The position numbers and the translations under genes were made by a program. Below the pieces are notes generated by a model. That model saw only the letters and a program-made list of their open reading frames with translations. It searched no databases and had not been told where the DNA came from. From positions 34,038,001 through 34,102,000 of the forward strand of contig CM068746.1 of the NCBI GenBank assembly GCA_035084275.1: a DNA stretch of 64,000 bases. The letters are read 5' to 3'. This stretch comes from Hydrolagus colliei (lineage: Eukaryota). Of this stretch, positions 13,201-56,121 are shown in pieces (within the stretch, counting starts at the first letter, position 1; every line of letters begins with the position of its first letter).

Positions 13201-16200
13201 AGATGAAGAATGAGGAAGGAAGAGAAGGGCAAGAACAGAAGAAAAATGACCAGGCGGAGAAGGACCCACCAGATGGGAAGAAGCTTGATACCGTGAAGCA
13301 GGAAAGGCAAGATCTGGAGAAGTAATGTCTTGACAATTTATACTTTCCATCTGATCTCTGCCCAATTTAACCCATTACACTCACTAGAGGCCTTCAATGC
13401 CCTAATGCCTCCCAATCTCTTTGCTTGTATCCCATTCCTCTGCCCAGTCCCTTGGCTGCATTTCACATCCTGCGTGCAGGGTGCTGAATAATTGTTGGTT
13501 GTTGTTTTCTCCTGAATGGAACCAAAATCCAGCAGAAATCTGAGATTTCTAACCATGTGAATATGAAAATCAGGAGTTTATGTTGAAATTGCGAAGTTCT
13601 TTGTTTGTGTCCCATCTGGACTACCTGGTCAAAAGCGTCATCTTTACTGCCACAGGTTGAGGAAGGTAAAATATCTATTTGTATGTGAAGCAAAATGATG
13701 GAATCTTTATTATGTGCATCATATTGGAGAGATATTAGATGTCTCAAATAATAGGAGGGGCGGGAGTGGGGGGAAAAAAAGGAGGAAAAACTCAATTTAA
13801 AACCCTTTTAGGATTACGCTTAAAAGAGCCAATGCAAATCTGATTGAGCAAAATGGTTACCTTTTGTGCTAGAATTTATTTCCATGGTTAAGATCTGACT
13901 ACTGTTTCTTTTATCACTCAGCTGCTGCAATAATGTGGATGTCCACTCTTACAGGATCGAACCAGAGGAGGTATGTTCTTTTATTATTAGAATTTTATTC
14001 TGTTATATTAAAATGTTCACGCAGCTTGTCTCAGGCTCCCACACTCTCTCCGTGTGGTCGTTAGCTTGAGGGTTCAAACCTCCCCTGCCCATTCCCATGT
14101 TGGGGACTTTGAGCTCGCAGTGCAGGCTGACTCTCCAGTGCAGTGGTAGGGTTGCATTGTGTTGTTGGAGATTCCGTCCTTCGGGTGAGCTGTTAAACCG
14201 AGGTCTTATCTGCGCCTGTAAACATGGAAGTTAAATATCCCGTGGCACTGTAGGAAAAGAGAAGGGAGTTTCTCTCTCCCAGTGTCCTGGCCAACAATCC
14301 TCTGTGACAAGACTGTGTTAAATGACTGGATGATGAGATTGAGTGACAAGCTCCCACGATCTTAGGTGCCCAGCTGGCTGAGGAAAACATGAAATTTGTA
14401 TGTTAGTTGTGTTATATAGTTATACAGTGACGTGTTTTCTTCCCCATGTCAGGCTGCTAAACAAAAAGTGACCAAATACAAGAACAAGAAGGATCATAAG
14501 CTGTGCAAAGCAATGTGCCTATGTGTGGCTTACTCCTCCACCATTGGAGGCCTCTGCACCATCACTGGCACCTCCACAAACCTCATCTTTATTGAGCAAT
14601 TCAACACGTAAGCGAATTACAATATGGAGCAGTGGCACATGCAAAGAGTGACACAGAGAGGTGTTTAATGATGCAGCAAGAAACAGGCCACTCATCTCAA
14701 CCACTCCATGCCCATATTTATACTCTTCAGATACCCACAACCCTCCATTCCCCTCTCCTATACCCCTCTATTCACCCTTCCTGTACCCATCCATTCCCCT
14801 CTCCAGAACCCTTCTATTCCCCTCTCCAGAACCCTCCTATTCCCCTCTCCTATACCACTCTATTAGATTACAATACAATGCAAAATTATATTTGCCTTTC
14901 ATGTACCAAGGAAGGACATACCAAGGAGCTGGACAGTCAGAGATTTGGACCTGAGCTGGGGGTTGGGATCAGAGAGGGTGGAGTGGAGGGAGGGTACGAT
15001 GGTGGCTAAAGTTACGGTCGAAGAGGAGGATATTGAGACAACGCACCTTGAAGGAGGTAAGAGAGGGAGTGAGGCAAAGGGAATGTGGGATGAAAGCCTG
15101 AAGGCTCAACCACCGATGGTGGGATGAGGGACGAGGAGCAAGACACAGCCTGCCGAGTGGAGGGAGTGGACAGGTTGATATAGGGTCAGCAGGATGCAGA
15201 GGCAGGAAGAAGCAAGGTAATGGAGGGCCTTGAAGGCGAGGACGAGTATTTTGAACTCTATTCTCTGGGAGACGTGGAACAGGCAGACTGGGTCATGGCA
15301 CTGATGTATGGAAGAAAGGATAGTTGAGGGTCAAACAATACACCAAGGTTCCGGACTGGCTCAGTGAGGTGGAGTGTGCATCCATGGATGGTGATGCTGT
15401 CAGTGCCTGAGATTTCCCTCTCTGACACCCTCTTTCCCTCTCTATTGCCCTCTGTCTCATGTATGTATCAAGTTTTATCTTAAACACGTTGATGCTTTTA
15501 GCTTGAACCACAACTTCCAGCAGCGAGTTTCACATTTTCTTTCTGTTTCCTTTTGTCGTAGGCGTTACCCAGAAAGTAATGATGTGAACTTTGGCTCCTG
15601 GTTTGTTCTTGTCTTCCCCATGTCACTCATTATTCTCATCTTGTCCTGGGTCTGGCTCCATATCATGTTCTGTGGCTTTAAGTAAGTCCCTTTTACATTT
15701 ATCCACCCATATTATAATCCCAAGATCACATGATAGGTCTGGATATAGAATGCCTTTCCGCACATCTGATCTAATTTCTCCATCACACCTTCCTTACCAT
15801 CTCTCCATCACAGTATCAAGCTGCTTTATAAATGAATTACGGTGTCCTGACCTCAACCAGCATCCTGCTAACCTGAGCTGAAAAAGTCCATGATTCTATT
15901 TATGAGAAGAGAGCCGGGAGTGGGATTGACTTTGAATAGCTCTTTTCAAAGAGCTGGCACAAACTCGATGGGCCAAATGGCCTCCCTTTGTGCTGAACAA
16001 TTCTATGATTCTATTCCCATCACTAATTAAAGAAAATCTTCCTGATGTCTGTCCTGAAATTGCCTTTATAACTCTAAACAAGCGTCCCCTTGTTCTACAG
16101 TTGTGTTGCATCCTAAAGGATTGACCTGGGTTTAAATTCTCACAACACATTTAAAATTTGGGGATTGAAAAAGTAAATCTTGACCAATATTTTAGAGTGT

Positions 16201-19200
16201 AGATTGACGCCGCTGCTGACTGTGTCACTCATTTGGACTCAACTACAGTGGAGTCCTGTAGCATAGTGGTTAAAGCACTTGCTTTGCAAGTGAGAGGACC
16301 TGGATTTGATTCCTGGACAGTGTAAAATATTAGTCAAGTTTCCGTACGCCACACCTCTGTTTACCTAACACAAAGTAGGATCCCCGTTGTTAGTCAATTA
16401 GCGGATTGCTTTTCTGGGGGTAATAATCCATTGAAAGATGGAACTTTTAAACAAATTCACTACTCAATCTATGACTGATTGTGAGATACCACTGTGTGCA
16501 ATTGGCTGCCATGTTTCACTCAAAAAATATACAGTCCATTCATTTTACAGTATATTCTATAAAGCATGTTGAGATGTCTCAAAGACATGATCAGGCATTA
16601 TATCAAATGCAGGGTTAATAGAAGCTGAGTGGGAGGAGTTCCCTCCAGCAATGGCTGGTTTGCCTTTCCAAGTCCTGCCAATGAGCCAGCCTGCTGTCAA
16701 CAGCTGTGACCTGGAACACCGCGCACCCGCCTGGTTCAGGAATCGGAAAAGAGAGAGCCACAGAGGATGTGATCCCACATTCCATTGATAAACATGTTAC
16801 CTTGGACCCGTTCATCCCTGAGTAGACCCCACTTACCTCCCATCGAAGGCCGTGAGCAACAGACATCACATAAAGGCTGTCCAGCACACAGGAAAGCAAT
16901 ATAAACATTCAGTACATTACGGGGCTCATTGTGGCCGGAACTGTATTTCTGACTGTCTCTGTGAAACCTTGCAGCTTTAAAAGGACGTTAACATGCAACA
17001 AGACCATGAGCAACAAAGAAAATGCATCTATGAAAGTCATTCAAAACGAGTACAAGAAACTAGGAGCCATGTGGTAAGAAATCTTTCCTGTTGCCTTGCA
17101 GCTGTGTCCAATACAGATGTGTGTCTGCAGTGATGGTGCTCCCATCCCTATACTCTATAAGCTGCAGATCATCGAGAACTCTGCAGCCTGTGTCCTCTCC
17201 CACACCAGGCTCAGCAAACCTATCACCCCCATCCTTGCCCGACTCCAATGGCTTCCCATCACACAGAGGATTCAATTAAAGTTCCTAATCCTTACCTTCA
17301 AAGCCCCCTGTGGCCTTGCCACCCCCCGATACCTCAGTGCCCTTCTAACCTCTGGTCTGCTCTATGTCCCCCTCACCCCTCCATTGTCAAGCGAGCCTTC
17401 AGCCACTCTGCCCCCAACCTTTGGAATGCCATCCTGTAATTCCCCCCACCTCACCCCCTCCCTAGCCTTCTTCAAGTCCCACCTCAAGACCCTCCTTTTT
17501 GACCATGCCATTGTTCACCCACACCCCCTTTCCCTCTGCCCTCACCAATCCCGACCCCAGCTTGGGTCCAAATCACTGACTGTGCAATGCCTTGGGATGT
17601 CCTCCAGATGCGAACTGTGCTACACAAATATAATTTTGTTATTATTGCATACAGGAAGAGGGTAGGGAGTGCAATCAAATACATTTGTAATCCACCCTTC
17701 ATGTGCAATATAAAGCAGAGGCCCCTTCCATGCCTAGTCAAGTGGATGGTAAAGGTAAAGAGATTTGCAAGGATCCTGGTGGCAGAGGTTTGGATGAGTT
17801 GGAAGTCTAAGGGTGATAGAATGATGGGAGACCAGTGAGGTGTGGGTGAGCAGTGTCTAGGCAATCGAATAGCAAACACTCACTGAGAAAAATTGTGATT
17901 GTGTTGTAATTGTAAGTGTGTCAGCAGAGGGGTTGAGCAGCAGAGACTGAGGAGTATATAGTATACAGTATATAGATATATATATAGCTGAAAGTTCTTT
18001 GTTTACCTCTCAGTTATCAGGAGATCATCACCCTCATTCTGTTCTGCTTAATGGCATTACTGTGGTTCACAAGAGAGCCTGGCTTCTTCCCAGGCTGGGC
18101 ATCTCTCTTCCCAGAGTAAGTATTGATACACGAGGGAATTATTCCACTCTGGGTGGGGGTGGGGAGTGTCTAAGTGGAACTGAGAGACTGATCTAAACTA
18201 GACAGAGTTCCACATTCGTCTGCCATCAGTGGTTAGAGCATTCGCCTTACAAGTGTGAGAGTGTTCGAATCCAGGCAGATCAGGGCGAAACCATGGACAA
18301 GTTTCCTTACTTCACATGCCTAATAATAACCGTCAAAAAAAAACACAATAATAAAAATTGGTCATTTTCAATTCATGGCAATGGATTTGTAGGACACTGC
18401 TGCGTGCAATTGGCTGCTGCATTTCACCCACAAATATACAGTCAATTCACTCTACAGTATATTCTGTGAAGCGCTTTGAGACATCGATAAGATGTGAAAA
18501 ATGCTATATCAAATGCAAGGATTATTATTATTATCTACATATGAAAATGTCCCTGTCTCTGGAATGAATTGCTCACCCTACTTAATTCTGGAGATTATTA
18601 GGGTCAGAATGGCAAGAGCCAAGGCTTTGGGACTCCATAGATTACCAGCATTTAAGGACTGATGGAACCTACACAGCTAAAATACTACACATCTTAACAT
18701 TGAGTGTAATATCTGGGAAGCCTCCAGCTACTGATCCAGCTGGTACCACCCTGCCTGTTAGGGTTTGGACTTGCAGAGTTAACAGGAACTGAGTGTTCTT
18801 CCAAGTCCTGCTGATGAACTGGGCTGAGCTGTCATCAGCAGTGATTGTAGCACTTTGGACCCACCTGGCTCGAAAACTGGACTGGAGACCACCGCAGATG
18901 GTGGACTCAATTCTAATTCAGCTTCAAGTAGACCCTACTTACCTTCCACATGAGGAGAATGGGACACATTATATTGGAAAAGAAACATTTGTTTGGAAAG
19001 GTATAAATTGGGGTTAGCCCTGTAGCTGAGTGGTTAGAGTACTTGCCTCACAAACAAGAGGGGTTTGATTCCTGGATGTAGCAAAAGATTAGGCAAGTTT
19101 ACTTACTTTACATGCCTCTTTTTACCTAACGGTAAGTAGGAACCTGGTTGTTAGTTAATAGACGGATTCCAGGGGTAATAATCTTTTTTTAAAAAAGAAT

Positions 19201-22200
19201 AATAATTTGGTCACTCAATCCACAACTGTTTGTGGGACACTGGCTGGGTGCAATTGGCTGCCACGTTTCGCCCACAATATACACATTCAATTCACTTTAT
19301 GCCCCAAAGATGCGATATGGCGCTATACATTAAATGCTGATGATTGCTAAATGTGCTATATTAAAGGATGATGATGATTATTATGATTATTGAATTTCGC
19401 TGTCTCTCTCTTCAGCAGGTATGATGGCTATGCCACAGACTCCTCGGTGGCTCTGTTGGTGGGTCTCCTTTTCTTTATTCTGCCTGCTGGCAAGGCCACA
19501 TCATCCCCAACAAAGAGTTGAGTGGTTGCTTTTGATTTTTGAGCTTCTTTCTGGTTTTAGCTGCTGTCGAAGGCTTCCGCCTTGGAGCAGCATTGCACAA
19601 CTTCCCTTCCTCATCCACACCCACTCCCCGATTTCAGAGCTCCTAGAAGCTACCCTGCCTGAAGGGTGCTTTATAAATTATCAATCCAAATTGTAGTTGT
19701 TGATGCAGATGAGGTAGATGCCAAAACAGCTTGCATTCGCACGGCGGCCATCGTACAAGGCAATATCTTGAAGCATTTAACAGGGACCTTGGTCGGACAA
19801 TGAGGAAGGCAGAGAGAGGGAGGTGGCCATAGGTGTGGTTGAACAGGTACATAACATAAGAAACTAAACATAAGAATATAAGAACATAAGGTAGGCTGTA
19901 AAGCAGGAGTTAAAGACTGAGTAGGGGGGAGTTCCAGAAGTGGAAGGTTAGAAGAAGAGGGTTCCTGAGGTTAGAGGACTGGGATGCAGAGTTTGGTGTG
20001 GGTGAGGATGGGGGTGGTGGGGCTTTAGAGGGGCTGGCAATGCGCTGGTGTGGTGTGAACCAGTTGGCTGGGTTGCCTGTCAAGCGATCCAGGCTTTCAT
20101 TTCTTGGCAGTTCTATTTTATAAATCACCTCTAGATGTTTATTGTGACATGACAGGCAGTGCACAATGCAAGTTGTTATAACTCAATTAACCATTGTCAA
20201 CCTGTGTGGTGACATAGCCTAGTTAAAGTCACTGGTTGGGTTAGCCAGGACATGCCAAACACACTTCTCTCTCTCACTCTCTTTCTCTCTCCCTCTCTCT
20301 ATTTCTCTCTCTCTGTCATTCACTTATTTTTGTCTCAGTGCCTCACCTCGAAACCCCTTCATGTCCTGGCAGTCTCTCCCAGTTGTCCTATCTCCTCCTG
20401 TCCCACAGGCTAACCAAGCCTTGCTGAGGAACCCCCCTGTTCTATAAGATGCTAAGTAAACACAAATTGTTTTTGTACTCTCTCTTTCTCTGTCTCTCAC
20501 TTTTTTTTCTAGCTCACGCTGCATTTTTCCCACTCTCTCAGAATCCCTCTAACTTTTTATCTCTCCTCTGTGACTCTCTCTGACACAAAGCATTCACAGA
20601 ATAAGTGTATAAAAGACTGGCCTTTTACCCGCTGGCCAGAATGTAAGGTAACTGAGCCACAGTTTCCTCGCTCATCCCCACATAGCCAAGGCATGTGCTT
20701 TTTATGCTGGTTTCTCCCAGCCTCACATCCACCGGAGCCCAATGTGGATTAGTGGGCATGTGAATAGCCAGCGTAGTGTAGAGCCTGGTTATCACTCTGG
20801 GATTTTGGAGCCCATTGCGCCACCCAAGAAACCAATAGCCGCTTGGGTCTGTGTTCTCTTCTGTGTTACAGAGAAAGGCTACGATGCTCTTATCACATGG
20901 TCAGAGTTTAATGAGCACGTGCCTTGGGATATCTTCTTGCTGGTCGGTGGAGGCTTCGCTCTGGCAGAAGGCTGTGAGGTGAGGCAACTGGTCCAAAGGC
21001 ATCTCAATTCCAGTGTGCCTGGACCAACTGGGCATCTTTACATCCATTTCCAAACAGGTCTCAACCTGGCTCAAACTCTCACACCCTCACCTCAAGTCAG
21101 AAGCTTGTGGGTTCAAGTCACATGTCGGGGACTTTGAGCTCACAGTCCTGGGGGAGTGCTACAATGTCGAAGGTGCCGTTCTTTGGATGAGACACTAAGC
21201 TGAAGTCCCGAGTGTGCCTGTTCAGGTGGATGTTAATGATCCTATGGCATTGTTGGAAAAGAGAAAGAAATTTCTCTCTCCCTCTCTCCCAACAATCCTC
21301 TGGATAAAATTGGTCATTCACTCTGGAGTCCTGTAGCATAGTGAGAGGACCAGGATTGGATTCCCAGGTGGTGCGAAACCTTAGGCAAGTTTCCTTAATC
21401 AAGGAACATGGTTGTTAGTTGATTGGCGGAAATGCTTTCTGGGGGTACTAATTTCTCCCCAAAATTCACTCAACCATGACTGTTTGTGGGACACAGCTGT
21501 GTGCAATTGGCTACTGTGCTCACAAAATATGGTCAAATCGACCAAGGTTCACAATATATTGTGTGAAGTGCTTTGATACATCTCAACAACCTGATATCAA
21601 ATGCAAGGATTATTATTATGGACCAGGAGGATTGTTGAGCCCTGTAACCATGTGGTATCTCTTTGGCTGTTACAGCTCTCGGGTCTCTCTGTCTGGGTGG
21701 GTAGTAAACTGGAGCCTCTGAGATCGCTGCCACTGTTGGTCATCATCCTGATCTCTTGTCTGCTTGTCACCACAGTGACTGAGGTTGCCAGCAACCCAGC
21801 TACCATCACCATCTTCCTCCCCATTCTTGCTCCCTTGGTGAGTATCCACCCATATATCTCTCCACTGTTCTTCTCTCCTGTAAATTCTGTGTAGCATAGT
21901 GGTTAACACACTTGCCTCCTAAGTGAGGGAACTTGGGTTTGATTTCTGAGTGGGGTGAAACCTTAGGCAAGTTTCCTTACTTTACAACATCTCTGTTTAT
22001 TTAACAGTAAATAGGAATCAGGTTGTTAGTTGATTAGGTGAACATCTTTCCAGAGGTAATAATCCCTCTTTTAAAAAAAAAACTGTGGTCACCCAATCCA
22101 TAACTATTTGTGGGACAATGCTGTGTGCAATTTGCTACCCCATCTTGCCCACAAACTACACAGTCAATCCACTTTACAACAAATTCTGTGAAGTGCTTTG

Positions 22201-24987
22201 AAATGTCTCAATGATGTGATAAGGTACAGTATTATATCAAATGCAAGGGTTATTATCATTATCGCCAATTTCTTGAAGAGATCTCAGATCCCAATGGAAC
22301 TGTGGTTCGAAACCCACTGTAGTCTTTACAGCAACAGCCACAACTTACTTTTATATAGTGCCCTTCATAGAGGATAGTCTTGAATGCTGTACAGGCTCAA
22401 ATACTGAACTAGGGAAAAGGGTGGGGAGGGACCATAGGGAAGGTCAAAGTGGTAGGTCTTCAGATGGGATATAAAGATCCATAAAGAGGGGGTGAGGTGG
22501 TGGGATAGAGGCAGATGGTTTGAGAGGTCTTTAGTGTTCAGCATAGGAATATAGGAACAAGAGAATTTGAATCAGAAGTTTGTGGGTTGAAGCCCCAATT
22601 GGAACTTGGTGAGGAAAACAGAATGCAGCCCAGTAGATGGGGTTTGATCATGGCACCACACAATACAGCAGTGTTTGGGCAATGTAACCTATGTACGACT
22701 AACTTGCTTGTTCAGAACCATGTTCTGTGATGGGCAAGTTCAAACGTCACAAATCAGTTCAACCTCTCGCTGTTGCTTGATACACAGTGGCCTTCCCGTG
22801 TAAGAGCCTGTCACGATAGTGGGGACAAACAGTGAGCATGGGGAGAGGGAAACGTGACTGTAGATGTGGTCAAAGAGATAGGGCTTTCAGATTGATGATG
22901 GGTGTGGGGGTGGAAAGATGGAGACGTCGAGTGAGGGACTTTCAGAGACTAGGGGTATAGAATGAGAAAACTTGTCAGCGATGACGGGGCGGAGATTGGG
23001 GTTGAGACGAGCAGCCGCAACAACAACTTGCACTTATGTAGTGGCCATCACGTGGGTTAGCATCTCAGAGCAAGTCTAACACAACAAGAGTTAACTTTGT
23101 TTTGTGCTTCTCTTAGGCTGAGGCCATTCACGTCAATCCTCTCTATCTGCTGATACCTACCACTCTGTGCACCTCCTTTGCTTTCCTCTTGCCTGTCTCC
23201 AATCCCCCGAACGCAATTGTGTTTGGATATGGCCACGTGACAATGATGGATATGGTGAGTTTCAGTTGTTCCAATGTCTGGTGGTGGAGTGAGCCGGAGG
23301 GATGAAGGAAGTGATCATACTCGAAGAGGAACCTCTTCAGTCGTGATTACCTAAAAGAAGGGAAGATGGGGTGGTGGGGGCTGGAGGGGGTGGTGGCAGG
23401 GGTTGTTGGGGCGGCAAGCCCAAGGGATTGAGGGAGAGTTCCAAAATTTCAGGCTGAATGCACGGCCGCCTATGGTGGATTGGAGGGGATAAGAACGAGG
23501 AGGAGCCAACCGAGCAGAGGCAGTGGGTTGTGAAGCAGGAGATGCCAGCGCTGGCAGGTATTTGTAGTCAAGTGAGATGGTTTATATTGCATGAGTGAGA
23601 ACTCAGCCAGAAAAATTAGTACTAATAAGGGTGTGTGTTTCCGTTCCGTGACTAACTCACCTGTTTTGGTTACATGCTCTGTATCTGCTGAGTCACAGTA
23701 TGTGACACCAGAAAACCATGGAAATTTATGGTGCTGATTGAAGATTGCAAAGAAAGATCTTCAGATTGTTTTGAAAATGGGGAGGGTGTGAGGTGGATAG
23801 ATTCTAAGCTGGAGATCCAGAGAGAAGGGGTGGAGTGGCTCCTGAATTATAGTGGGCAGGCTAGGGAGAGAGGGCATGAAGCAGGCTGAGCGAAGGGAGC
23901 AGCCAGCGTGATAAGATTTCAGGAGGTCAAAGAGATCACTCTCTCCAGGATTAGGTAAGTAGGATACATCCCTCCGGTGTACATTCCATTGTAAACACAG
24001 GGACACTTCCTCATGTGGCTGGTTTCCATGTGACAGACACCGACTGTGGACCTGGGTACTTGCTGAAGTTCTTTGCTTGACCAAAGATGTCAACCTGACT
24101 CAGTCAGTAGCACTCTCGACTGTGAAGCCCAAAGCCTTAGTTCGGGGGAATGTTACATTGTCAGAATTGTCATCCTTCAGATGAGACGTTATACCAAGGT
24201 TCTGTCTGCCTGTTTAGGTCTACCTTAAAGACCTCACTATTGAAAAAGAAAAGGACATTTGTCTTTCCTGGCCAGTCCCCCAGATAAAATTGGTCACTCA
24301 GTTCAATGACTGTTTGTAGGATGTTGCGAAGAGCCATTTGGCTGCCAAGTTCTCCAATAAAAAAACCGTCACAGTTTACTGTATCCCAGCGAAGCGCTTT
24401 GGGATGTCCTCCCGATGTGGAGGTGCTATATAAAAACGTAAGGTTGTATTTGGATTATAAATCGTTGTGTGCCTGTTCTGGTTTCAGGAAACGCAGTCTG
24501 GCTTTATGCCACAGGGATGGCAGGTCATTATAAATCAATTGTCTCCACCTTTAATGGAAAGTTCCCAGAGACTGCATTCAAAATGCAGCCCTGAGGTTTC
24601 CGCTGCTTACAATAATAAATATAAGCACTAATTAGAAATTATAACACCAATGCCTCTTTTCCACGCAACTCGTTCAGTGTGCAAATTGGCTGCTGGGTTT
24701 GCCTACAGAACACACAATCACTAAAAGTGAAACGCACTTTGTGAAGTCTTTCTGAGGTGAAAGGCGTCAAAAGTAAAGGTTAGGATTATTCTCATTGTTA
24801 TGAAGTATATGCGTTGATCCATCATGGATGTGCTGTTCTCCTTTAGGTGAAAGCTGGGCTGGGAGTGAACATCATCGGAGTTGCAGTTGTGATGCTTGGC
24901 ATCTCTACGTGGGCAGTGCCTTTGTTCAGCTTGGATGTCTATCCCTCATGGGCTCCCGACCTCAGCAACACAACGACTACCCCCTAA
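7198..24987 (+). CDS. slc13a1: Solute carrier family 13 member 1 (Na+/sulfate cotransporter NaS1), spliced CDS of 15 exons, 615 aa
   Basis: join(7198..7296,9834..9962,10532..10668,11105..11283,13189..13321,13922..13970,14453..14607,15562..15681,16975..17073,18014..18115,19419..19516,20872..20978,21676..21837,23117..23254,24847..24987) = 1848 nt, open frame ATG to TAA, all introns GT..AG. Contains YFKDFHLLLVGVICLATSIEKWNLH (SLC13A1-type), LSMWLSNTSTAAMVMPI and TEVASNPAT (the two SNT-type motifs), ITGTSTNLIF, LPVSNPPNAIVF and a C-terminal N-glycosylation sequon NTT. Confidence 0.93.
7355..7810 (-). mobile_element. Family A SINE, near full length, intron 1
   Basis: aataatccttgcatttgatac tail ... 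gactcagacggaagagctactggctgagccaggctgtc head. Confidence 0.8.
7930..9225 (+). mobile_element. CR1 LINE 3' fragment interrupted by a 915-bp insertion (CR1 parts 7930-8080 and 8996-9225)
   Basis: ctggggctttttcactagagaagagatgtttaagtgggga..attaggaggaattact // tcacaccgagggcagtgagattgtggaac..ttgggctgagtggcctgtttc; the two halves rejoin into the CR1 ORF2 end. Confidence 0.8.
8081..8995. mobile_element. Solo-LTR-like insertion (TG...CA, 4-bp TSD TACT)
   Basis: TACT(8077-8080)|TGTTGA...CTTCA|TACT(8996-8999); removal restores the contiguous CR1 sequence; AT-rich, non-coding. Confidence 0.7.
9834..9962 (+). CDS. slc13a1: slc13a1 exon 2 (ESECAYIVLVVAIFWLSEALPLAITGLIPALMFPLFGIIKAKD)
   Basis: tttttccag| acceptor, |gtgagt donor, 129 nt, EALPL motif. 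Confidence 0.96.
10532..10668 (+). CDS. slc13a1: slc13a1 exon 3 (VASSYFKDFHLLLVGVICLATSIEKWNLHRRIALRLVMMMGVDSG)
   Basis: gttttcag| acceptor, CG|gtgaga donor, 137 nt, EKWNLHRRIAL motif. Confidence 0.96.
10840..11072 (+). mobile_element. Degenerate L2 3' end in intron 3
   Basis: ttcaaaatttgtctcaaga..tttgactgtgccttcgg; tail gagacatcctcctaatgtgaaagac..(ttg)n. Confidence 0.65.
11105..11283 (+). CDS. slc13a1: slc13a1 exon 4 (LMMGFMLSCAFLSMWLSNTSTAAMVMPIVEAVTQQIVNAETEAEALQENGVSNSGFELN)
   Basis: ctcctag| acceptor, G|gtaaaa donor, 179 nt, first SNT motif. Confidence 0.95.
11340..11765 (-). mobile_element. Degenerate L2 fragment in intron 4
   Basis: Reverse-strand similarity to the 5272-6338 element (LTLTYK, gcaacagagttttgga). 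Confidence 0.55.
13051..13140 (+). pseudogene. Decayed duplicate of the slc13a1 exon 7 3' end plus intron 7 start
   Basis: Aligns to 14575-14664 with about 10 differences in 90 nt; donor ac|gtaagc changed to ac|gcaaga. Confidence 0.85.
13189..13321 (+). CDS. slc13a1: slc13a1 exon 5, charged loop (EKEDKMKNEEGREGQEQKKNDQAEKDPPDGKKLDTVKQERQDLE)
   Basis: Pyrimidine tract + tttttgactaaag| acceptor, AA|gtaatg donor; 133 nt, phase 1 in / phase 2 out as needed to join exons 4 and 6; purine-rich open frame. No motif-level homology, so less certain. Confidence 0.72.
13922..13970 (+). CDS. slc13a1: slc13a1 exon 6 (CCNNVDVHSYRIEPEE)
   Basis: ttttatcactcag| acceptor, GAG|gtatgt donor, 49 nt, restores phase 0 for exon 7. 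Confidence 0.78.
14453..14607 (+). CDS. slc13a1: slc13a1 exon 7 (AAKQKVTKYKNKKDHKLCKAMCLCVAYSSTIGGLCTITGTSTNLIFIEQFN)
   Basis: catgtcag| acceptor, AC|gtaagc donor, 155 nt, AYSSTIGG..TGTSTNL motif. Confidence 0.95.
14872..15410 (-). mobile_element. Degenerate L2 fragment in intron 7
   Basis: Tail motif near 14885-14930 and ggccttgaaggcgaggacgagtattttgaactc matching L2 ORF2. Confidence 0.7.
15562..15681 (+). CDS. slc13a1: slc13a1 exon 8 (RYPESNDVNFGSWFVLVFPMSLIILILSWVWLHIMFCGF)
   Basis: ttttgtcgtag| acceptor, AA|gtaagt donor, 120 nt, NFGSWF motif. Confidence 0.95.
15895..16150. mobile_element. CR1 fragments in intron 8 (short + strand tail followed by - strand ORF2 piece)
   Basis: gatgggccaaatggcctccctttgtgctgaacaattctatgattctat (+ tail); HNCRTRGRLFRVIK (-). 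Confidence 0.65.
16251..16615 (+). mobile_element. tRNA-derived SINE family B (CORE/Meta-like centre, same L2-type tail as family A), representative copy
   Basis: Head gtagcatagtggttaaagcac..ggatttgattcc; centre caagtttcc..cctctgtttacctaac..agtagga. Other copies (approx.): + 18225-18533, 19017-19340, 21324-21620, 21888-22262, 37780-38050, 38595-38860; - 40553-40710, 50700-50990. Confidence 0.72.
16975..17073 (+). CDS. slc13a1: slc13a1 exon 9 (FKRTLTCNKTMSNKENASMKVIQNEYKKLGAM)
   Basis: ccttgcag| acceptor, TG|gtaaga donor, 99 nt, EYKKLG motif. Confidence 0.93.
17130..17645 (+). mobile_element. L2 3' fragment in intron 9
   Basis: KLQIIENSAACVLSHTRLSKPITPILARLQWLPITQRIQLKFLILTFKA; tail at ~17590-17645. 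Confidence 0.88.
18014..18115 (+). CDS. slc13a1: slc13a1 exon 10 (YQEIITLILFCLMALLWFTREPGFFPGWASLFP)
   Basis: cctctcag| acceptor, GA|gtaagt donor, 102 nt, LWFTREPGF.PGW motif. Confidence 0.95.
19419..19516 (+). CDS. slc13a1: slc13a1 exon 11 (YDGYATDSSVALLVGLLFFILPAGKATSSPTK)
   Basis: cttcagcag| NAGNAG acceptor; ATDSSVALL..LLFFILPA motif; 3' end uncertain (weak donor A|gttgagt, see findings). Confidence 0.85.
20872..20978 (+). CDS. slc13a1: slc13a1 exon 12 (KGYDALITWSEFNEHVPWDIFLLVGGGFALAEGCE)
   Basis: tgttacag| acceptor, GAG|gtgagg donor, 107 nt, PWDI.LLVGGGFALA motif. Confidence 0.95.
21676..21837 (+). CDS. slc13a1: slc13a1 exon 13 (LSGLSVWVGSKLEPLRSLPLLVIILISCLLVTTVTEVASNPATITIFLPILAPL)
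   Basis: tgttacag| acceptor, TTG|gtgagt donor, 162 nt, TEVASNPAT motif. Confidence 0.96.
23117..23254 (+). CDS. slc13a1: slc13a1 exon 14 (AEAIHVNPLYLLIPTTLCTSFAFLLPVSNPPNAIVFGYGHVTMMDM)
   Basis: ttctcttag| acceptor, ATG|gtgagt donor, 138 nt, SFAFLLPVSNPPNAIVF signature. Confidence 0.96.
24847..24987 (+). CDS. slc13a1: slc13a1 terminal coding exon 15 (VKAGLGVNIIGVAVVMLGISTWAVPLFSLDVYPSWAPDLSNTTTTP*)
   Basis: ctcctttag| acceptor; VKAGLGVN and YPSWAP motifs; TAA at 24985-24987. Confidence 0.95.
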   Translation: MKAGLGVNIIGVAVVMLGISTWAVPLFSLDVYPSWAPDLSNTTTTP

Positions 24988-27316: not shown

Positions 27317-27605
27317 TAGACAGAAATCACTGGGAACAGCAGATCAGACAGAATCTGTGGAGCAAGAGGAACGTGAGTTAAAGTTTCAGGTCAATAACCT
27401 TTCGTCAGAACTCAGAGTAAAAGGGAAAAAACAAAAGTCACGTCGAAGAGAAGAGCAGAACTTCAAGGTAATCATTCCTGGAAGAGAAGTGGGGGTGAAT
27501 TAAACATTAAACAAAACGCAAAATGCTGCAGATGCTGGAAATCTGAAATAGAAACGAAAGTCGCTGGAAACACATAGCAGGTCAAGCAGCATCTATGGAG
27601 AGATG
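27317..27605 (-). mobile_element. Two tandem Penelope-like pseudo-LTR fragments
   Basis: 27317-27413 and 27505-27605 both match the 35647-35858 arms (aatgctgcagatgctggaaatctgaaa..cagcaggtcaagcagcatctatggag). Confidence 0.7.
27375..27413 (-). ncRNA. Degenerate minimal hammerhead ribozyme motif
   Basis: Minus strand GAGUU-CUGACGA-A-AGGUU AUU GACCU-GAAAC-UUU-AACUC; stems I and II pair fully, but GUU is changed to UUU. Confidence 0.5.
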
Positions 27606-27702
27606 ACAGTGTGTGTAAAATGGGGTACTGCTGGAGTCTAACCAGCTGTTAGTTGGTCTGCAGAGAGAGTGGGTTGCAGATTTGATCATTACATTGCGGT
27701 TG

Positions 27703-32374: not shown

Positions 32375-33510
32375 TATAATAATAATAATCCTTGTATTTG
32401 ATACAGAGACTTTTTATATTGCTAGAACATCTCAAAATACTTAGCAGGATTTCAGTAAAGTACAGTGACTGTGTATTTTATAAGTGAACGTGGCAGTCAA
32501 TTTGCGCAGAGTAATGTGCCACAAACAGCCATGAAGTCAGTGACCAAAGTTAGTTGGGAGTTGTTGGCTAGGAAACCAGGAGAGATAAACTCCCTCTCTT
32601 TTCCAATATTGACAGGATCTTTAGGTTCACCTGGACAGGCACAGACTATCCACCTTGTTTAAAATTTCATCTGAAAGATGGCATCTCTGACAATGCAGCA
32701 CTGCTCCAGCCTGGCACTGGAGCATCAGCCTAGACAATGCGAGTTGCGGGATTTGAACCTGCAGAGATTCAGGCGGGAAAGCCTGAGGCTGACACATTGC
32801 ACTTGCCGAAACAGGAAATGTCAAGTCAATTGGCATTCAAATCGAACAGCTGAGGAAATGTTTTTTTATATATGAAGAAAAGATCACTGGTGATGTGAAG
32901 CAATGGCAATTGCATAATGAATGCTGCTCACTGCAGCATTTTTGTCAGCTTTGACTCAGCACTTAGTTGAGAGTCTGCATCTCCCTGGAGTGGATCGGTG
33001 AAGAAAGCGAGAGAGAAACTCGGAATCGAGCTAAGCTGCCCTCTACAACGGGCTGTTAGTGTGCAAAAAGCTCGCTGAGTTGAATACAACAATAACAACA
33101 CAATTACATTTGAAATAATAATAATAATCCTTGCATTTAATATGGTGCCTTGTTATGTCATCAAAACGTCTCAAGTGACTTCACAGGATATACTGTAAAG
33201 TGGTTTGATTGAATATTTTGTGGATGAAACTTGGCTGTCAGTTTGCACACAGCAATGTCCCACAAACAGCCACGGAGTGAGTGATCAATATTATCTGGGG
33301 GATTGTTGGTCAGGAGAGTAGGGGAAATTGCCTTCTCTTTTCATGAAATCTTTATCCACCACCTGAACAGGCAAATGGGACCTCAGTTTAACATCTCATT
33401 CAAGGGACGACACCTCCAACAATGCAACACCCCACCCTGCCCCCAGCACTGCATTAGAGTGTCAGCTTAGACTATGTGATTCCATGTCCTGATGTGTGGC
33501 TTGGAACATG
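32375..33510 (-). mobile_element. Two family A SINEs (32375-32800, 33115-33510)
   Basis: (aat)n-ccttg(t/c)attt tails and tttaacatctcattcaaggga-type cores on the reverse strand. Confidence 0.75.
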
Positions 33511-35628
33511 GTCTCTCTCCTTCCTCACAAATACAGTTGTAGTTGGTTAAACACAACACACACAATTTGGTGTCCCCAGCATTGGCTCTTGCCAACCTTA
33601 ATTGAAATACTTTGCATAATTAGACACAGGTTGGTGAGCAATAGAGTCCAACCAGCAAAGAAACACATTGTTTACGATTAAGAGCTCTGTGTGACAAGCT
33701 TTCCTGCTGCGTATCCTGTTTGGGCTGTGGTTTGTTGGGTTATCAGGACCTGAGTGGGAACAATCCCTACCCTGCAGTGTGTGCTCTGTCTGCAAGCCAG
33801 GCTGGTTGGTCTGTCATCAATAGAGCGCTGGAGTACTGGTTAACAAGCAGCAACCTCCTGGTCATTCTTAAATGGAATCATTTTGTTTTAATGGTCCACA
33901 CAGAGGATACTTAATTCACTGTAAATTGTCTCTCATTAACACCTTTATAAATGATAATACTAACTGGGTCAGTTCATCATCCTATTAGTTATTGGCTATC
34001 AAGAATGTCCCTGTGGAACTATCATCCTGTACATTGTCCTCAGAACCTGCTATTTACTGTCCCCGGTGTCGTCTCTCATCGGAAAACATTCTGCTCTGTC
34101 ACACATACTCACTCATGGTGAATTCTCCATCTCTCAGGCCCATGTGGGAAAGAGGGACTCTCTCTGTGATAATCGTTGTATTTCAGATTGAGATGCCGCA
34201 TTAGCCAGGTGGACTTTAAGCTTTTGATTCACTCACAGCTTTTGATTTGGTAAAGCCAGGTGACTGATGCGTGTAAAAACCCACTACAGGCCTTAGAGAC
34301 TCCAAACCAGGCTGTGAGTTCCATTGCATTAAAGCTAAACGTGGAAATCTCCTTGTGTCAGGAGTGGAATACAGGCTCTTCCTCCTTAGAGGGTTGACCC
34401 CTGCTTACCTGGAAGACATCTGGAAGATATTAGGCACAGGTTGGCAAATGCCATGGCTTGGAGACTCCAAAGTGTACTTCAACAGCAAAGCAGGTGATGA
34501 CGGTGTCCTGTTAGATTTACATGTGTCCATTATCAAGCCTATAAATATCTGTCTGAAACCAAAGTGCTCATGAACCCATTCCAAGAGTGAGCATTAAACA
34601 TGACTCTTTGCGATGCTCTTCTTTGTAAGCATTGATTTATAGGCCAGCATTCACTTTAAACTCTCTTACATTCAGGGGCAGGAAGGAGATCAAGATTTAG
34701 AATACAGTTTAAACATTTCACAGAGAGTAGAGTCCGGACTCTGTCAACAGACTGGAAGCATGTTGATGGATAATAATAATAAAATAATAGCATTTTGCTA
34801 CCTTGCCTTTCACTTCAGGAGGATGTCTCAAAACCCTTCAAGGGATTCACTGTTAATTGTCGTGTTTGTGTATATTGTGCAGCCAATTTGTGCACCACAA
34901 TGTCCAACAAACAGCTATGATGAGAATGGATTAAATTTGAATTCAGAGGATTTAAATTGAAAATCTACAAACCTGTTGGTGCCCTGTCCACTCCCTCCCT
35001 CTCCGACCTACTTACTCCCCACTCTACCACCGATTACCTCTACTCGGTTGGCTCCTGCTTGTCCCTTATCCCCTCCGCTCCAGCATCAATGGCTGTGCTT
35101 TCAGCCACTATGCCCCCAACCTTTGTAATTCCCTGCCATAAACTCTCGGCTTTGCCTCCTCCTTTCCCTTTTTCAGATCATGCCTGAAGATCTTCCTCTT
35201 CAACTGGGCTTGCTAAGGTCACCTCCCTCCTCTCCAGTTAAGCATGACAGACTCTGTCACTGCATAAAGTATTCTGGGACACAACCAAGGCTGCGATATA
35301 AATATGTTGTTTATATGTTGGCCAGTATACCGGAAGAAACTCTCTTTTCCAATAGTCTAATATGTCAGCCTGGAAGCTACAATCGACTAACTTGAGGAAA
35401 AAGGCAATTGATAGCGCTCTCCCGTCTGCCAAGAAAATATCAGATTCAAGCCCCCACATTAGGACTTGTAATTTATATTGTCTAAGTTGACTCCGGTGCC
35501 TGCGGTTTGCTGCACTGTTGGAAGTGCCATCCTTCAGATGAGACATTAAAACCAAGTCTGCCATTACAGATTAATAAACATTACATGAAAAGACAATGGA
35601 GTTTCTCTCTCCCGGTCTCCAAGCCAAC

Positions 35629-35872
35629 AATCCACAAATTAAAACAGAAGTTGCTGGGAAAACTCAGCAGGTCAGGCAGCATCCGTGGAGAAAAGAAAGT
35701 GAGTCAACGTTTCGGGTCCACGAACCTTCATCAGAACTGTTCTGAAACGTTGACTCACTTTCCTTTCTCCATGGATGCTGCCTGACCTGCTGAGTTTTCC
35801 CAGCAACTTCAATTTTTGTTTCAGATTTCCAGTATCTGCAGTATTTTGTGTTTCATTTAATCCACAAATTAA
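35629..35872 (+). mobile_element. Penelope-like element remnant: inverted pseudo-LTR pair with 14-bp TSD, inserted into a SINE
   Basis: TSD aatccacaaattaa at 35629-35642 and 35859-35872; arms 35647-35713 and 35744-35810 are reverse complements with 2 differences. Confidence 0.75.
35705..35739 (-). ncRNA. Minimal type I hammerhead ribozyme motif
   Basis: Minus strand AGUU-CUGAUGA-A-GGUUC GUG GACCC-GAAAC-GUU^GACU: conserved core, stem I AGUU/GACU, stem II with one mismatch, palindromic ACGU stem III. Confidence 0.62.
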
Positions 35873-36799
35873 GATTGGTCAATCACTTCATGGCTGTTAG
35901 TGGAACATTGCTTTGCATGAATTGGCTGCATGTTCACCCACAAAAAACACAGTCACCACATTTTACTGTAAATCTGCCGAAGTGCTTTGAGTCATCCATC
36001 TGACATTAAAGGTGTTGCACTCAAATACAACGATGAACATATTCACATGAGATGTTAAACCGAGATCTGTGCTGTCTACCAGTACAGGCACAGATCTCGG
36101 TTTAGCTTCTCATGCGAAAGACAGCACCTCTGCTTCCCCACCACTGCCCTGGAGTATCAAGTTGGACCATGAGCTCAAGGTGAACCCATAACCTCTGACA
36201 CAGAAGCAAGTGTATTATCGACTGAGCCAGGCTGAATCCATTGTACAAAGAGAATAGTTTGTTGGTGTAAAGTGGCAATTGAGCACACAATTCACTGTAG
36301 AGAGACGTGTGTGTTTGTCAGATTAAAATTGCTTTCTGCTAATTGAATGCTTGGGGCCAACTGTTGTAGAGTGAAAGTTTCCAAGTCTAACAAGATCAGT
36401 TTGAAAGATGCTGGAGGTGAAGGAAGTGAATTGACAGTGGATTTGTTCGTGCGTTAACATTATTCAAGTGAAGGGAGTAGAATTGTTCCTTCATCCGCAA
36501 TGAAGGAAGGGCTCTGTGCATGGATTGTCAGTTAGAGTGTTAACCATGTTAAGGAGCCCAAAGTCCATCAATAATGCTGGACTGGAATTTGTCACTGGCC
36601 TGGCCAGGGTTTATATAAATACTATGTGTTGGTCACTATTTGACTGCCATGTTTGCCTCCCAAAATACACTGTTAATTCTCTTTGCAATATATTCGGTGA
36701 AGCGTTTTCAGATGTCTCAACAATGTGATAAGCGAAAGATAAGGTGCAATATCAATTGCAAGGATTATTATTAGTAGTAGTACAGTATTCTGTTAAAAT

Positions 36800-37240
36800 G
36801 TCAGCTTGGTTCAGCCAGTCGCTCTCACCTCTGAGTCAGAAGGTTGTGTGGGCTCAACCCACACATTGAGGACTTAAGCTCAAAGTCGAAGCTGATGCTC
36901 AAGTGCAGTCCTGGGGATATTGCTGTTTTGTCTGAGGTACTGAGGAGATGTTACACTGAGATCCCGCCTGTGCCACTGAAGATCCCGTGGCACGATTGGA
37001 AAAAAGAAGTGAGTTTCTCCTTGTATGCTGTGCAACAATCATCCAAATAAAATTGATCATCCACTTCATGGCTGTTTGTGGGACATTGCTATGCACAAAT
37101 TGGCTGTCATGTTCACCCACAAGTTTTGCAAAAAATAAAGTCACTACAACTTAACTTTATAATGAATCCTGTGAATCACTTTGTGGCATCCTCCTGATGG
37201 GGAAAGGCACTGTGTCAAATGCACGGCTTACTGTTATCAT
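36800..37240 (+). mobile_element. Family A SINE, near full length
   Basis: gtcagcttggttcagccagtcgctctcacctctgagtcagaaggttgtg head; tail gaaaggcactgtgtcaaatgca. Confidence 0.8.
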
Positions 37241-39129
37241 TTTACCAACTCCTGCTGGGATAGCTTTCAAAAGACATCAATTTTGCTCTGTTATTCATCT
37301 ATCAATGTGTGCTGTCAACTTCCTCAGTTATTCCCTCTGTTTCAACACCCTTCAGGGCTTTAAATCTATCAACCACTTCCACTCCTTTAAACCACACTCA
37401 GTTTTCACTGGAGGGCCTTCAGGTGATACTTAGTAGGCTTCCTGGAGGAATTATCATACAGATCTTCCTTCATTTTGCCCTGTCTGACTCATGCCCCTTA
37501 TGAGGCATATTTTTGCCCTGAAGCTAAAGCATGAAGCCTTCTTCACCCCCAATCAGACTTTTCAGCAGTTTCTCAGATCGATTAACAGTGGTGGAGACTG
37601 ACACTTTGATCAGACGTGTGCCTGACGCAACCCATCACCGTGCTTAAGAGTATCCAAACCCAAACTAACAATTCCATGTATCCCACCTACACATGGAAAC
37701 AGATTGTTGGAATGGAATTTGAACATTGAGGGATACATCTTGCTCACCTAATTCCTGATTCCTGCAACTGCAGTTGCCATGCAAGCGAGAGGCCTGGGTT
37801 TGATTCCTGACAGGGTGGAATATTGCTCAAGTTTCCTTACTCCAAACGCCTCTATTTACCTAACAGTAAGTCGGAACCCAGTAGTTAATTGATTGGCTGT
37901 TTCCTTTCTCGGCTGAGATTGGCTGCTGCGTTTCACCCACAAAATATATATATTCAATTTACTTTACAGTATATTCTGTGAAGAACTTTGAGATATCTCA
38001 AAGTCATGATAAGACAGCTATATCAAATGCAAGGATTATTATTAGTAGTAGTATTAGGCACTTGTTGCCTTGAGCCAAGGTTTGGGAACCCAGAGTGCGT
38101 GTTGGTGTCTAACCAGCTAAAACCGCATCGCTTGCCATTGATATCACTGTCTGGCAAGTGTATCAAAAAGTATTAAATCAGAGATTTACCACAGAAGAGG
38201 TGGGAGCAGCAATGCCGACTTAAATAGAAATCTGACAGGATAGGCACGGAGGAATCGCGAAACGAGAAAATTGATAGACTGTACATGACGATTTGACAGC
38301 CTTTCGAAACGTTTTTGATTCTTAAAAATAAGTCATTTGTCTGGACTCCAATGCGCCAGGACATAGTGTATTAAAAGGGAGAACAGTTCAGAACCAGGTG
38401 AATGCTTTTCTTCACAACCCGTCAGACTGAGAATGACTCAGAGCGTGGGGTGTCAGATCAGATGATAATGCTTAAATTTGAATCAGAAAAGCATTCACTT
38501 TAGGAGAACATCTCAAAGTGCTTCACAGGAGAAAAAGAAAAGAAGGGATTTCTCCTGGTGTACTGGAGACCGGAAGTTTAGTGATTACAGGATTTGCCCC
38601 ACAAGCGAGAGAGCCTGGGTTCAATTCCCAGGCAGAACAAAATGTTGGGCAAGTTTCCTTTTTCACATGCCTCTGTTTACCGCAGTAAGTAGGAGTCCAG
38701 TGGTTACTCAGTTGGCAGAACACTTTTCTGGGAATACTAATTGCTTACAAAAAATTGTTACTCAATACACCACTGCTTGTTGGATACTTCTTGATGCAAT
38801 TGGCTACAACATTTCACCCAGATAATCTAGTCAATTCATTTTACAGTATATTCTATAGGGACATCAGTTTAATATCCCATTTGAAGGATGGCACGTATAA
38901 CAATACCAACCCCCCACCCCACCACAGCACTGCATTGGAGTGTCACCTTATACAACGTGCTGCCAAGCCCCAGCATGGGGCTTTAACCCACATCCTTCTG
39001 ACTCAGAGGATTGTGCTATCATTGCGCCGGGCTTTCTGCCTTGTCAGTAAGTCTGTCAGCCTTCAATTGTACAGTATGTGATTCTGATGAATCTCTTGCT
39101 CATGAGCTTTAATGTCCTTGTTTCAAGAC

Positions 39130-55010: not shown

Positions 55011-56051
55011 CACCAATGTAGGTATATACAGCACCAGAAAAGGCCTGCTGTGAGCCAAGTGGCTAGATCCAAGATACAAATATGGTGTCGCATTGATCTG
55101 CAAAACACAATCGCTGCACTCGACAATATATTCTAGAAGTGCTTTAAAAAATCCTTTCTTTGTGAGTAGCATAAAATGAAATGCAAATATTATTATTATG
55201 TGATGCAAGTGTTGACTTCCTGACGTATTGTTGAGAGTTGTTGTTAGCCTCTTGGCTTGGGTGGTTAGCTCTTGTAGATGTGAGTGAGGTCAATCAGCAT
55301 CTGAGAAGACGCTGCCATCAATGGGTCACAAGGACTGAAGCTGCAAAGTCTCAGACCCTGGGTGGACAGACGGTTGTGAACATTAAAGGAATGAAAGAAA
55401 TCAAGGGAGAAAGATGCTGGTAAGATTGGCAGACTTGCAGCTAACAATGTTCACTTGTGGTTAAATTTTCATATAAATCACTTTTTATGCTTGGGGTGTG
55501 CCATTGAATGTTAGCAAGCAACAGCTACCAAGCAGAAAGGTGCTCAGCTGTCCTCGTACAAACAATTTCACTGTATTTAAAAACCGGCAAGAATACAAAC
55601 AGCTGTAAAGTAGATGACCAGTTTTACCTGGGGGATTGTCAGCCAAGACACTAGTAGAGAGAAACTCCTTTCTCTTTTCCAACAGTGCTGTGGGGTCTTT
55701 AACATCCAGCTGAACAGGCACAGGTGAAACTTCAGTTTAATGTCTCAAATAAAAACATTAACTACTTTGGTTGCAGGGTTAATAACAAAATGACACTTGC
55801 GTCGCACCTTTCCCATCAGGAGGACAGCCCAAGGCACTGACAGGAACCAAATGGGAAGAATTTTTTCTCCCAAAGACTGCCCTGTATCTCACTGCCTTGC
55901 TGACAGGTGGGCGGGCAACAGCAGTGCCCTGGAGCATTAAGCATTAACCTGGTTGAGAAATGAAACCACTATAGTAGATTGACTTGATTCCTTTGCCAAG
56001 CGCATCACCTTAGAGCTAGCTTATTCAATAAGATAGCCAGTTGCCACTTGA

Positions 56052-56121
56052 TACAAAAACAGAAATCACTGGCAACACTCAGCAGGTCAGGCGGCATCTA
56101 TGGAGAAAGGAAAAGTGAGTC
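56052..56121 (-). mobile_element. Penelope-like pseudo-LTR fragment
   Basis: caaaaacagaaatcactggcaacactcagcaggtcaggcggcatctatggagaaaggaaaagtgagtc matches 35641-35706. Confidence 0.7.

Follow-up and report, generated by a model that had tools for sequence, protein, structure and literature searches.

The insertion at 35629-35872 of the window, which is the whole 64,000-nt stretch of DNA that was analysed, is probably a truncated insertion of a Neptune-type Penelope-like element (PLE). Two copies of the element's end repeat (pLTR) stand head to head between target-site duplications (TSDs). In the reading that we favor, the element protein started cDNA synthesis on each of the two nicked target strands, and the RNA that was copied, up to its 5' end, had not been cleaved. 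Insertions of PLEs with an endonuclease (EN+) are described as carrying an inverted 5'-truncated copy and a one-sided tail of 30-40 bp (available text of PMC8557442; Adineta Pen2a_Av, available text of PMC3846280), and the window insert is an extreme case of this published layout.

Layout of the insertion

The insert (35643-35858) measures 216 bp and lies between exact 14-bp direct repeats, as seen in Table 1; a length of about 215 bp with repeats of this size had been predicted. When the flanks were joined without the insert, the join aligned to 13 other copies of the host repeat in the window at 65-77% identity. Therefore, the direct repeats represent a genuine target duplication. The host had been called a SINE, and a SINE-like repeat with 13 other window copies was indeed found. 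It may resemble the Deu-domain SINEs of cartilaginous fishes.

The fold-back was recovered with the counts of the original prediction, with two mismatched positions in the outer 67-bp arms, and two further differences lie immediately outside. The inverted repeat within the insert spans 78 nt and is 92% complementary. The arms are unequal in length, the right one being about 37 nt longer by the PLE 'tail', and the copy has the predicted inverted-pLTR layout, with no tail on the left arm and one on the right. The absence of 19 nt at GA in the right arm was also seen, with a break that is ambiguous across a short microhomology that includes GA. On the minus strand, the insert had a predicted fold of -143.7 kcal/mol (z = -17.5), equalled by 0 of 200 shuffles, which agrees with the long RNA hairpin expected if the locus is transcribed. 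A separate small fold-back, with 31-nt arms that are 90% complementary, was seen at 36042-36118, just beyond the host repeat.

Table 1. Features of the insertion and its host repeat, in window positions. pLTR positions are counted from hammerhead C3, which is 0.
Feature	Position	Strand	Basis or remark
Left target-site duplication, 14 bp	35629..35642	+	Last 2 nt also readable as left-arm end (arm alignment reaches 35641)
Tail-less (left) arm	35643..35738	-	pLTR -4 to about +93; 92/96 nt as in family majority
Minimal type I hammerhead motif	35702..35738	-	4-bp helix I, core, extra A, 5-bp helix II (one U-C mismatch), palindromic ACGU
Palindromic head-to-head junction	35731..35745	.	Ends of both arms lie at the family hot spot (-4/-3)
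Tailed (right) arm	35739..35858	+	pLTR -3 to about +131; 19 nt absent at GA microhomology 35744-35745
'Tail' extension, about 37 nt, one arm only	35817..35853 (approximate)	+	Two 3'-end classes among 129 arms
Right target-site duplication, 14 bp	35859..35872	+	Exact copy of left repeat
SINE-like host repeat, older, split by insertion	35508..36034 (approximate)	+	13 window copies aligned across empty site; flank matches

The hammerhead motif at the site

A regular-expression search returned a single hammerhead in the 64,000-nt window, which was the predicted minimal type I motif with a palindromic ACGU on the minus strand of the left arm. The motif was thus recovered by pattern but not by Rfam, since a scan of 33000-38500 gave no hammerhead family match. 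The miRNA matches in that scan were far under their gathering scores and were rejected as generic hairpin resemblance.

The core bases and the cleavable triplet are conserved at the site in the left arm only, with the predicted cut between 35706 and 35705 on the minus strand. Helix II of the window copy has a U-C mismatch at 35724, where the family majority has G-C. In isolation, the hammerhead fold was predicted at -1.5 kcal/mol for the window copy and at -8.2 kcal/mol for the family majority. Enforcing it within the insert gave -110.8 kcal/mol compared to -135.9 kcal/mol unconstrained, a cost of about 25 kcal/mol. Given the stem II mismatch and a hammerhead that would be hidden within the hairpin, we predict no activity for the ribozyme here. 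Metazoan PLE minimal hammerheads are reported to cleave poorly, and as dimers (available text of PMC4209133). Conservation of the core among copies held in part: it was intact in 22 of 70 family arms and not in the remaining 48. The losses are mainly at CpG sites, as expected for decay.

The parent element

A genome search gave 2,281 first-look candidates, of which 40 were scored, and an exact 27-mer of the arm had 2,150 matches in the genome. In some copies the sequence continues past the hammerhead in the upstream direction, and these led to disrupted ORFs in which YIDD, a CxxxxCxxC linker and a GIY-YIG domain were recognized. YIDD and CxxxxCxxC were read directly in parent copies, the latter in several. 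The same pLTR lies downstream of the ORF in 23 of 30 ORF-anchored loci, with the left arm 78-92% identical. In Pfam searches of the parent ORFs, the best E values were 4e-6 for RVT_1 and 2e-4 for GIY-YIG, all under the curated cut-offs, and a PDB search with one RT fragment gave 0 matches. Every parent copy seen has a broken ORF, and no intact full-length parent was present among the loci retrieved. The Penelope-like origin that had been predicted for the arms, and the GIY-YIG and RT parent to which they were expected to lead, were thereby supported. Judged by its sequence, the parent of these short insertions, or stubs, is an EN+ PLE with RT and GIY-YIG domains.

The CxxxxCxxC linker points to Neptune or Nematis as the clade of the parent and fits both alike, as a CX2-5CxxC linker between RT and EN is common to the two (available text of PMC8557442). 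We infer the Neptune label for this vertebrate element. At two loci (L243 and L248), the pLTR and tail also lie upstream of the ORF in direct orientation and continue into its 5' part, and thus the stub sequence is the element's 5' leader. The parent ORF seems to begin downstream of the tail and not within helix II.

Two further observations were made among the retrieved copies. In L243, a pyrimidine tract and AG (oriented positions about 580-625) lie immediately before a candidate start codon past the tail, suggesting a 5' UTR intron like that of Drosophila Penelope. Also, eight copies of a PLE ORF fragment (L232-L238 and L240) lie at G000:C38:4.15-4.33 Mb with 22-33 kb spacing and near-identical flanks, a large tandem array that carries the fragment; clusters resembling this one were seen on C40 and C48.

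Structure across family copies

The family was sampled from 98 of the first 100 listed 27-mer matches on contig C1, which collapsed to 84 loci. An inverted partner was present at 45 of the 84, a sample that was chosen blind to junction structure, favors young copies and slightly over-counts hairpins. The 3' ends of the 129 arms fell into two classes, 89-105 and 125-131, with only 2 in between. Among the 45 pairs, 40 joined a tailed to a tail-less arm, 3 had both arms short, 2 were intermediate and none had both arms tailed. One-tailed pairing was thus found in 40 of 43 (p = 3e-9), and the single arms divided 20 to 19 between the two classes. The one-sided tail was independent of which arm is longer on its 5' side.

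This pairing bears on a different origin of the second arm from the same parent, in which one cDNA, or an antisense RNA, folds back, primes itself and is copied. Self-priming on an antisense template has been proposed for palindromic PLE junctions (available text of PMC3846280), and the window junction is a near-perfect palindrome. The arms of a pair also usually share subfamily letters, for example in 41 of 44 pairs at one site compared to 57% expected, but this is also expected if one source is active at a time. Fold-back leaves unexplained why exactly one arm has a tail, regardless of which of the two reaches further at its 5' side. It is also countered by single arms bounded by TSDs that end at the same place as the hairpin arms (see below), and by deleted arms that often have a partner lacking sequence that they hold. 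We therefore consider fold-back quite unlikely and continue with priming of both target strands.

When TSDs of 10-17 bp were scored, tolerating one mismatch, 30 of the 39 short hairpins had them and 0 of 39 controls did. The junctions of these short hairpins were all distinct (39/39), and therefore each insertion generates its own hairpin, which does not spread by itself as a unit. Three long copies (L137, L132 and L123) share this layout but enclose about 2 kb of ORF, and copy sizes form a continuum from 100-bp single arms to 2-kb copies. The original prediction was of a non-autonomous, ribozyme-bearing insertion; the distinct junctions indicate a truncated stub formed at insertion, not an element that spreads as a unit.

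If the hairpin were a MITE-like or retrozyme-like non-autonomous element, copied as a whole and making use of its hammerhead, this would account for the high copy number, the TSDs, the lack of an ORF and the hammerhead motif, and PLE-derived non-autonomous retrozymes do exist (available text of bioRxiv 10.64898/2026.07.22.740005). Such an element is largely refuted, and we hold it to be highly improbable. The distinct junctions and the size continuum argue against it, as does the absence of a tandem array, and the window's exact junction occurs once among the 17 matches to its deletion. Its hammerhead fold is also 25 kcal/mol less stable than the hairpin, the cut site shows no excess of ends, and the core is intact in only 22 of 70 arms and is lost mainly at CpG sites. 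Two defined candidates were rejected separately: a MITE-like unit requires a homogeneous sequence with a fixed internal junction, and a non-LTR retrozyme requires two or more intact hammerheads in directly repeated tandem units, where the insert has an inverted pair with one motif.

Five loci (L069, L071, L072, L256 and L263) have junctions with short repeated pieces of the 5' part of the hammerhead, consistent with repeated run-off and template switching.

Where the arms stop at the 5' side

The 5' ends of 54 of the 129 arms fell at -7 to +2, just upstream of the hammerhead core. The stopping rate there was 10% per base, compared to 0.6-1.5% upstream and 0.3-1.9% downstream, and arm ends were spread over about 10 nt. 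A smaller rise in 5' ends at +13 to +22 fits stalling at helix II. Genome-wide, patterns for ends matched 661 times at -4 and 914 times at -3, and of 60 matches that were inspected, 56 proved to be true ends and not point changes. The predicted cut site gave 17 matches, compared to 23 at a control two bases away; the patterns for these two were stricter than those for -4/-3, so that the contrast between the sets is approximate but large. The cut site was accordingly rejected as a junction. With no excess of ends at the cut site and a cluster upstream of the core, the templates were mostly uncleaved. Hammerhead-cleaved RNA might exist but fail to integrate.

The single arms bounded by TSDs end at the same 5' hot spot as the hairpin arms. 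No common upstream exon was found in them, the element beginning directly after the target, and 11 of 16 were joined through 1-4 nt of microhomology. An untemplated base was present in 2 of the 16, and both were G. By hand count, G preceded -4 in 52 of 100 matches (27% expected). This is at most suggestive of a G derived from the RNA cap, with some of the G contributed by the partner arm or the target. The bases around -4 resemble an initiator consensus. Penelope itself has an internal Inr-type promoter in its pLTR (available text of PMC2377424). As the stub corresponds to the 5' leader of the element, the hot spot is most simply explained by run-off where the RNA begins, and -4/-3 is likely the transcription start of a pLTR-promoted RNA.

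It is unlikely that the hot spot instead marks a splice acceptor or a processing site, or that it is a microhomology favored in end joining. A pyrimidine-rich tract ending in CAG does lie before helix I, and in D. virilis one end of an intron coincides with the 5' boundary of helix I (available text of PMC4209133). However, a splice acceptor does not agree with single arms that begin directly after the target with no shared exon, and many ends retain bases upstream of the putative acceptor. The microhomology in most of the TSD-bounded single arms favors end-joining, but microhomology alone should not give an about tenfold stopping rate at one place. Run-off at a transcription start thus remains our preferred explanation.

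The deletion in the right arm

The 19-nt deletion covers the rest of the core box and all of helix II. The exact 17-mer that it creates had 17 genome matches, 16 of which are element copies. They include tailed and tail-less arms of more than one subfamily and, in L065, a long arm that reaches far into the upstream pLTR. At no fewer than 7 loci, that is at least 7, the partner arm cannot have been the template of the deletion. The original prediction looked for copies with both the hairpin and the deletion; the deletion recurs in 16 element loci, but the window's hairpin junction is unique among them. No deletion of this kind was present in the 84 sampled loci, and it is an uncommon by-product that has arisen repeatedly. 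What it takes out is precisely the helix II hairpin, which lies between two GA dinucleotides, and this fits a hop by the RT. A microhomology deletion during repair is an alternative (available text of PMC3846280).

Surroundings and age of the insertion

An SLC13-like sodium:sulfate/carboxylate symporter gene (Pfam PF00939) has exons at about 11060-24985 on the plus strand, and its final coding exon ends near 24,985, about 10.6 kb upstream of the insertion. Read-through from this gene would carry only the core-less arm in sense.

Each arm departs from the family majority at 4 positions, out of 96 in one and 110 in the other (about 4%), and copies of the host repeat are 23-35% divergent. In a related organism, one contig spans the tail, TSD and flank (35813-35992) with 6 differences. 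Since the same tail-TSD-flank junction is present there, this single contig indicates that the insertion probably predates the split from that organism. The predicted 'fairly young' age therefore holds relative to the host repeat but not in view of the shared junction. In another organism, one contig begins at the right TSD copy without an adjacent tail, a weak hint of an empty site.

Two other copies of the family were seen in the window. An older one at 27320-27614 (minus strand) is a direct partial tandem of pLTR +30 to +131, followed by about 100 nt that resemble the element's post-tail leader; its second pLTR starts at -4 with G before it, and it may record a template jump after run-off. 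The other, at 56049-56121, is a third, tail-less single arm (+29 to +100, 88% identical to the majority).

A proposed origin

The window insert could have formed in five steps. Staggered nicks about 14 nt apart would yield two primers. One cDNA would start at an inner site (about +97) and the other at an outer site (about +131), leaving a one-sided tail. Both would stop at -4/-3, where the pLTR-promoted transcript would start. In the tailed arm, the RT would have hopped over helix II through the GA microhomology, and the two cDNA ends would then be joined and filled in. The product would be a dead passenger with a hammerhead predicted to be masked by the hairpin.

This scheme is carried over, by analogy, from PAc (Poseidon of Anolis carolinensis), which belongs to the Poseidon clade and has its ORF start inside the hammerhead. 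PAc nicks and extends both strands, starts reverse transcription at two sites that bound the tail, uses uncleaved RNA in vitro and is predicted to be dimeric (PMC11167929). For the family as a whole, it is quite possible, short of probable, that the thousands of 100-135 nt stubs are products like a 'strong stop'. A dimeric PLE protein would prime both target strands at once, with one subunit for each initiation site in the 5' leader, and an uncleaved transcript would be copied by both cDNAs until they ran off at its capped 5' end. If so, the stubs would be an in vivo genomic record of the transcription start and of an asymmetric use of two initiation sites. They would also record occasional RT hops over helix II, and cleaved RNA would be an unusable template.

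The integration step of PLEs is still described as unresolved (available text of PMC8557442; PMC11167929). The window locus itself is ordinary, and the inverted-pLTR-plus-tail layout is already known, but the family is a large natural record of how PLEs integrate and the population pattern is modestly useful. The strict one-tailed pairing, the sharp 5' stop and the lack of a cut-site excess give precise predictions for 5' RACE and for in vitro TPRT. These data also suggest that in genomes of this kind many of the minimal hammerheads and miRNA-like hairpins are debris left by insertions and have no function as RNAs. In the literature, by titles and the starts of abstracts, neither run-off stubs at the pLTR start nor this family in cartilaginous fishes was found; most subscription papers, Repbase/Dfam and supplements lay outside this scope, so novelty is unproven.

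Comparison with known systems

The comparisons below, other than those with PAc, draw on the available text of the cited sources. The stubs resemble EN+ PLE insertions in their head-to-head inverted pLTRs, tail at one end, TSD, palindromic junction and microhomology deletions. They differ in that the window insert has no ORF, both of its copies are cut to about 100-135 nt, and the ends of the family cluster at one position. The window TSD of 14 bp is also longer than the 8-10 bp of the rotifer PLE examples.

Like metazoan PLE minimal hammerheads (PMC4209133), the motif has a short helix I, an extra base before helix II, a G-C first pair and ACGU, and dual motifs on opposite strands within 100-700 bp are known from that group as well. 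In contrast to them, the window copy is mismatched and its partner arm lacks the core. Helix II is 5 bp in the window, compared to 7-8 bp in the Schistosoma families (PMC4209133). Non-LTR retrozymes (bioRxiv 10.64898/2026.07.22.740005) are likewise non-coding, PLE-related and equipped with a type I hammerhead, but they consist of units repeated directly in tandem and hold two or more intact motifs, whereas the insert is an inverted pair with one.

PAc (PMC11167929) shares two 3'-end classes that bound the tail, a hammerhead upstream and evidence for uncleaved templates. Unlike PAc, the parent of the stubs has a Neptune-type linker, and its ORF appears to start after the tail. PAc is known from biochemistry, whereas the stub family is known from sequence.
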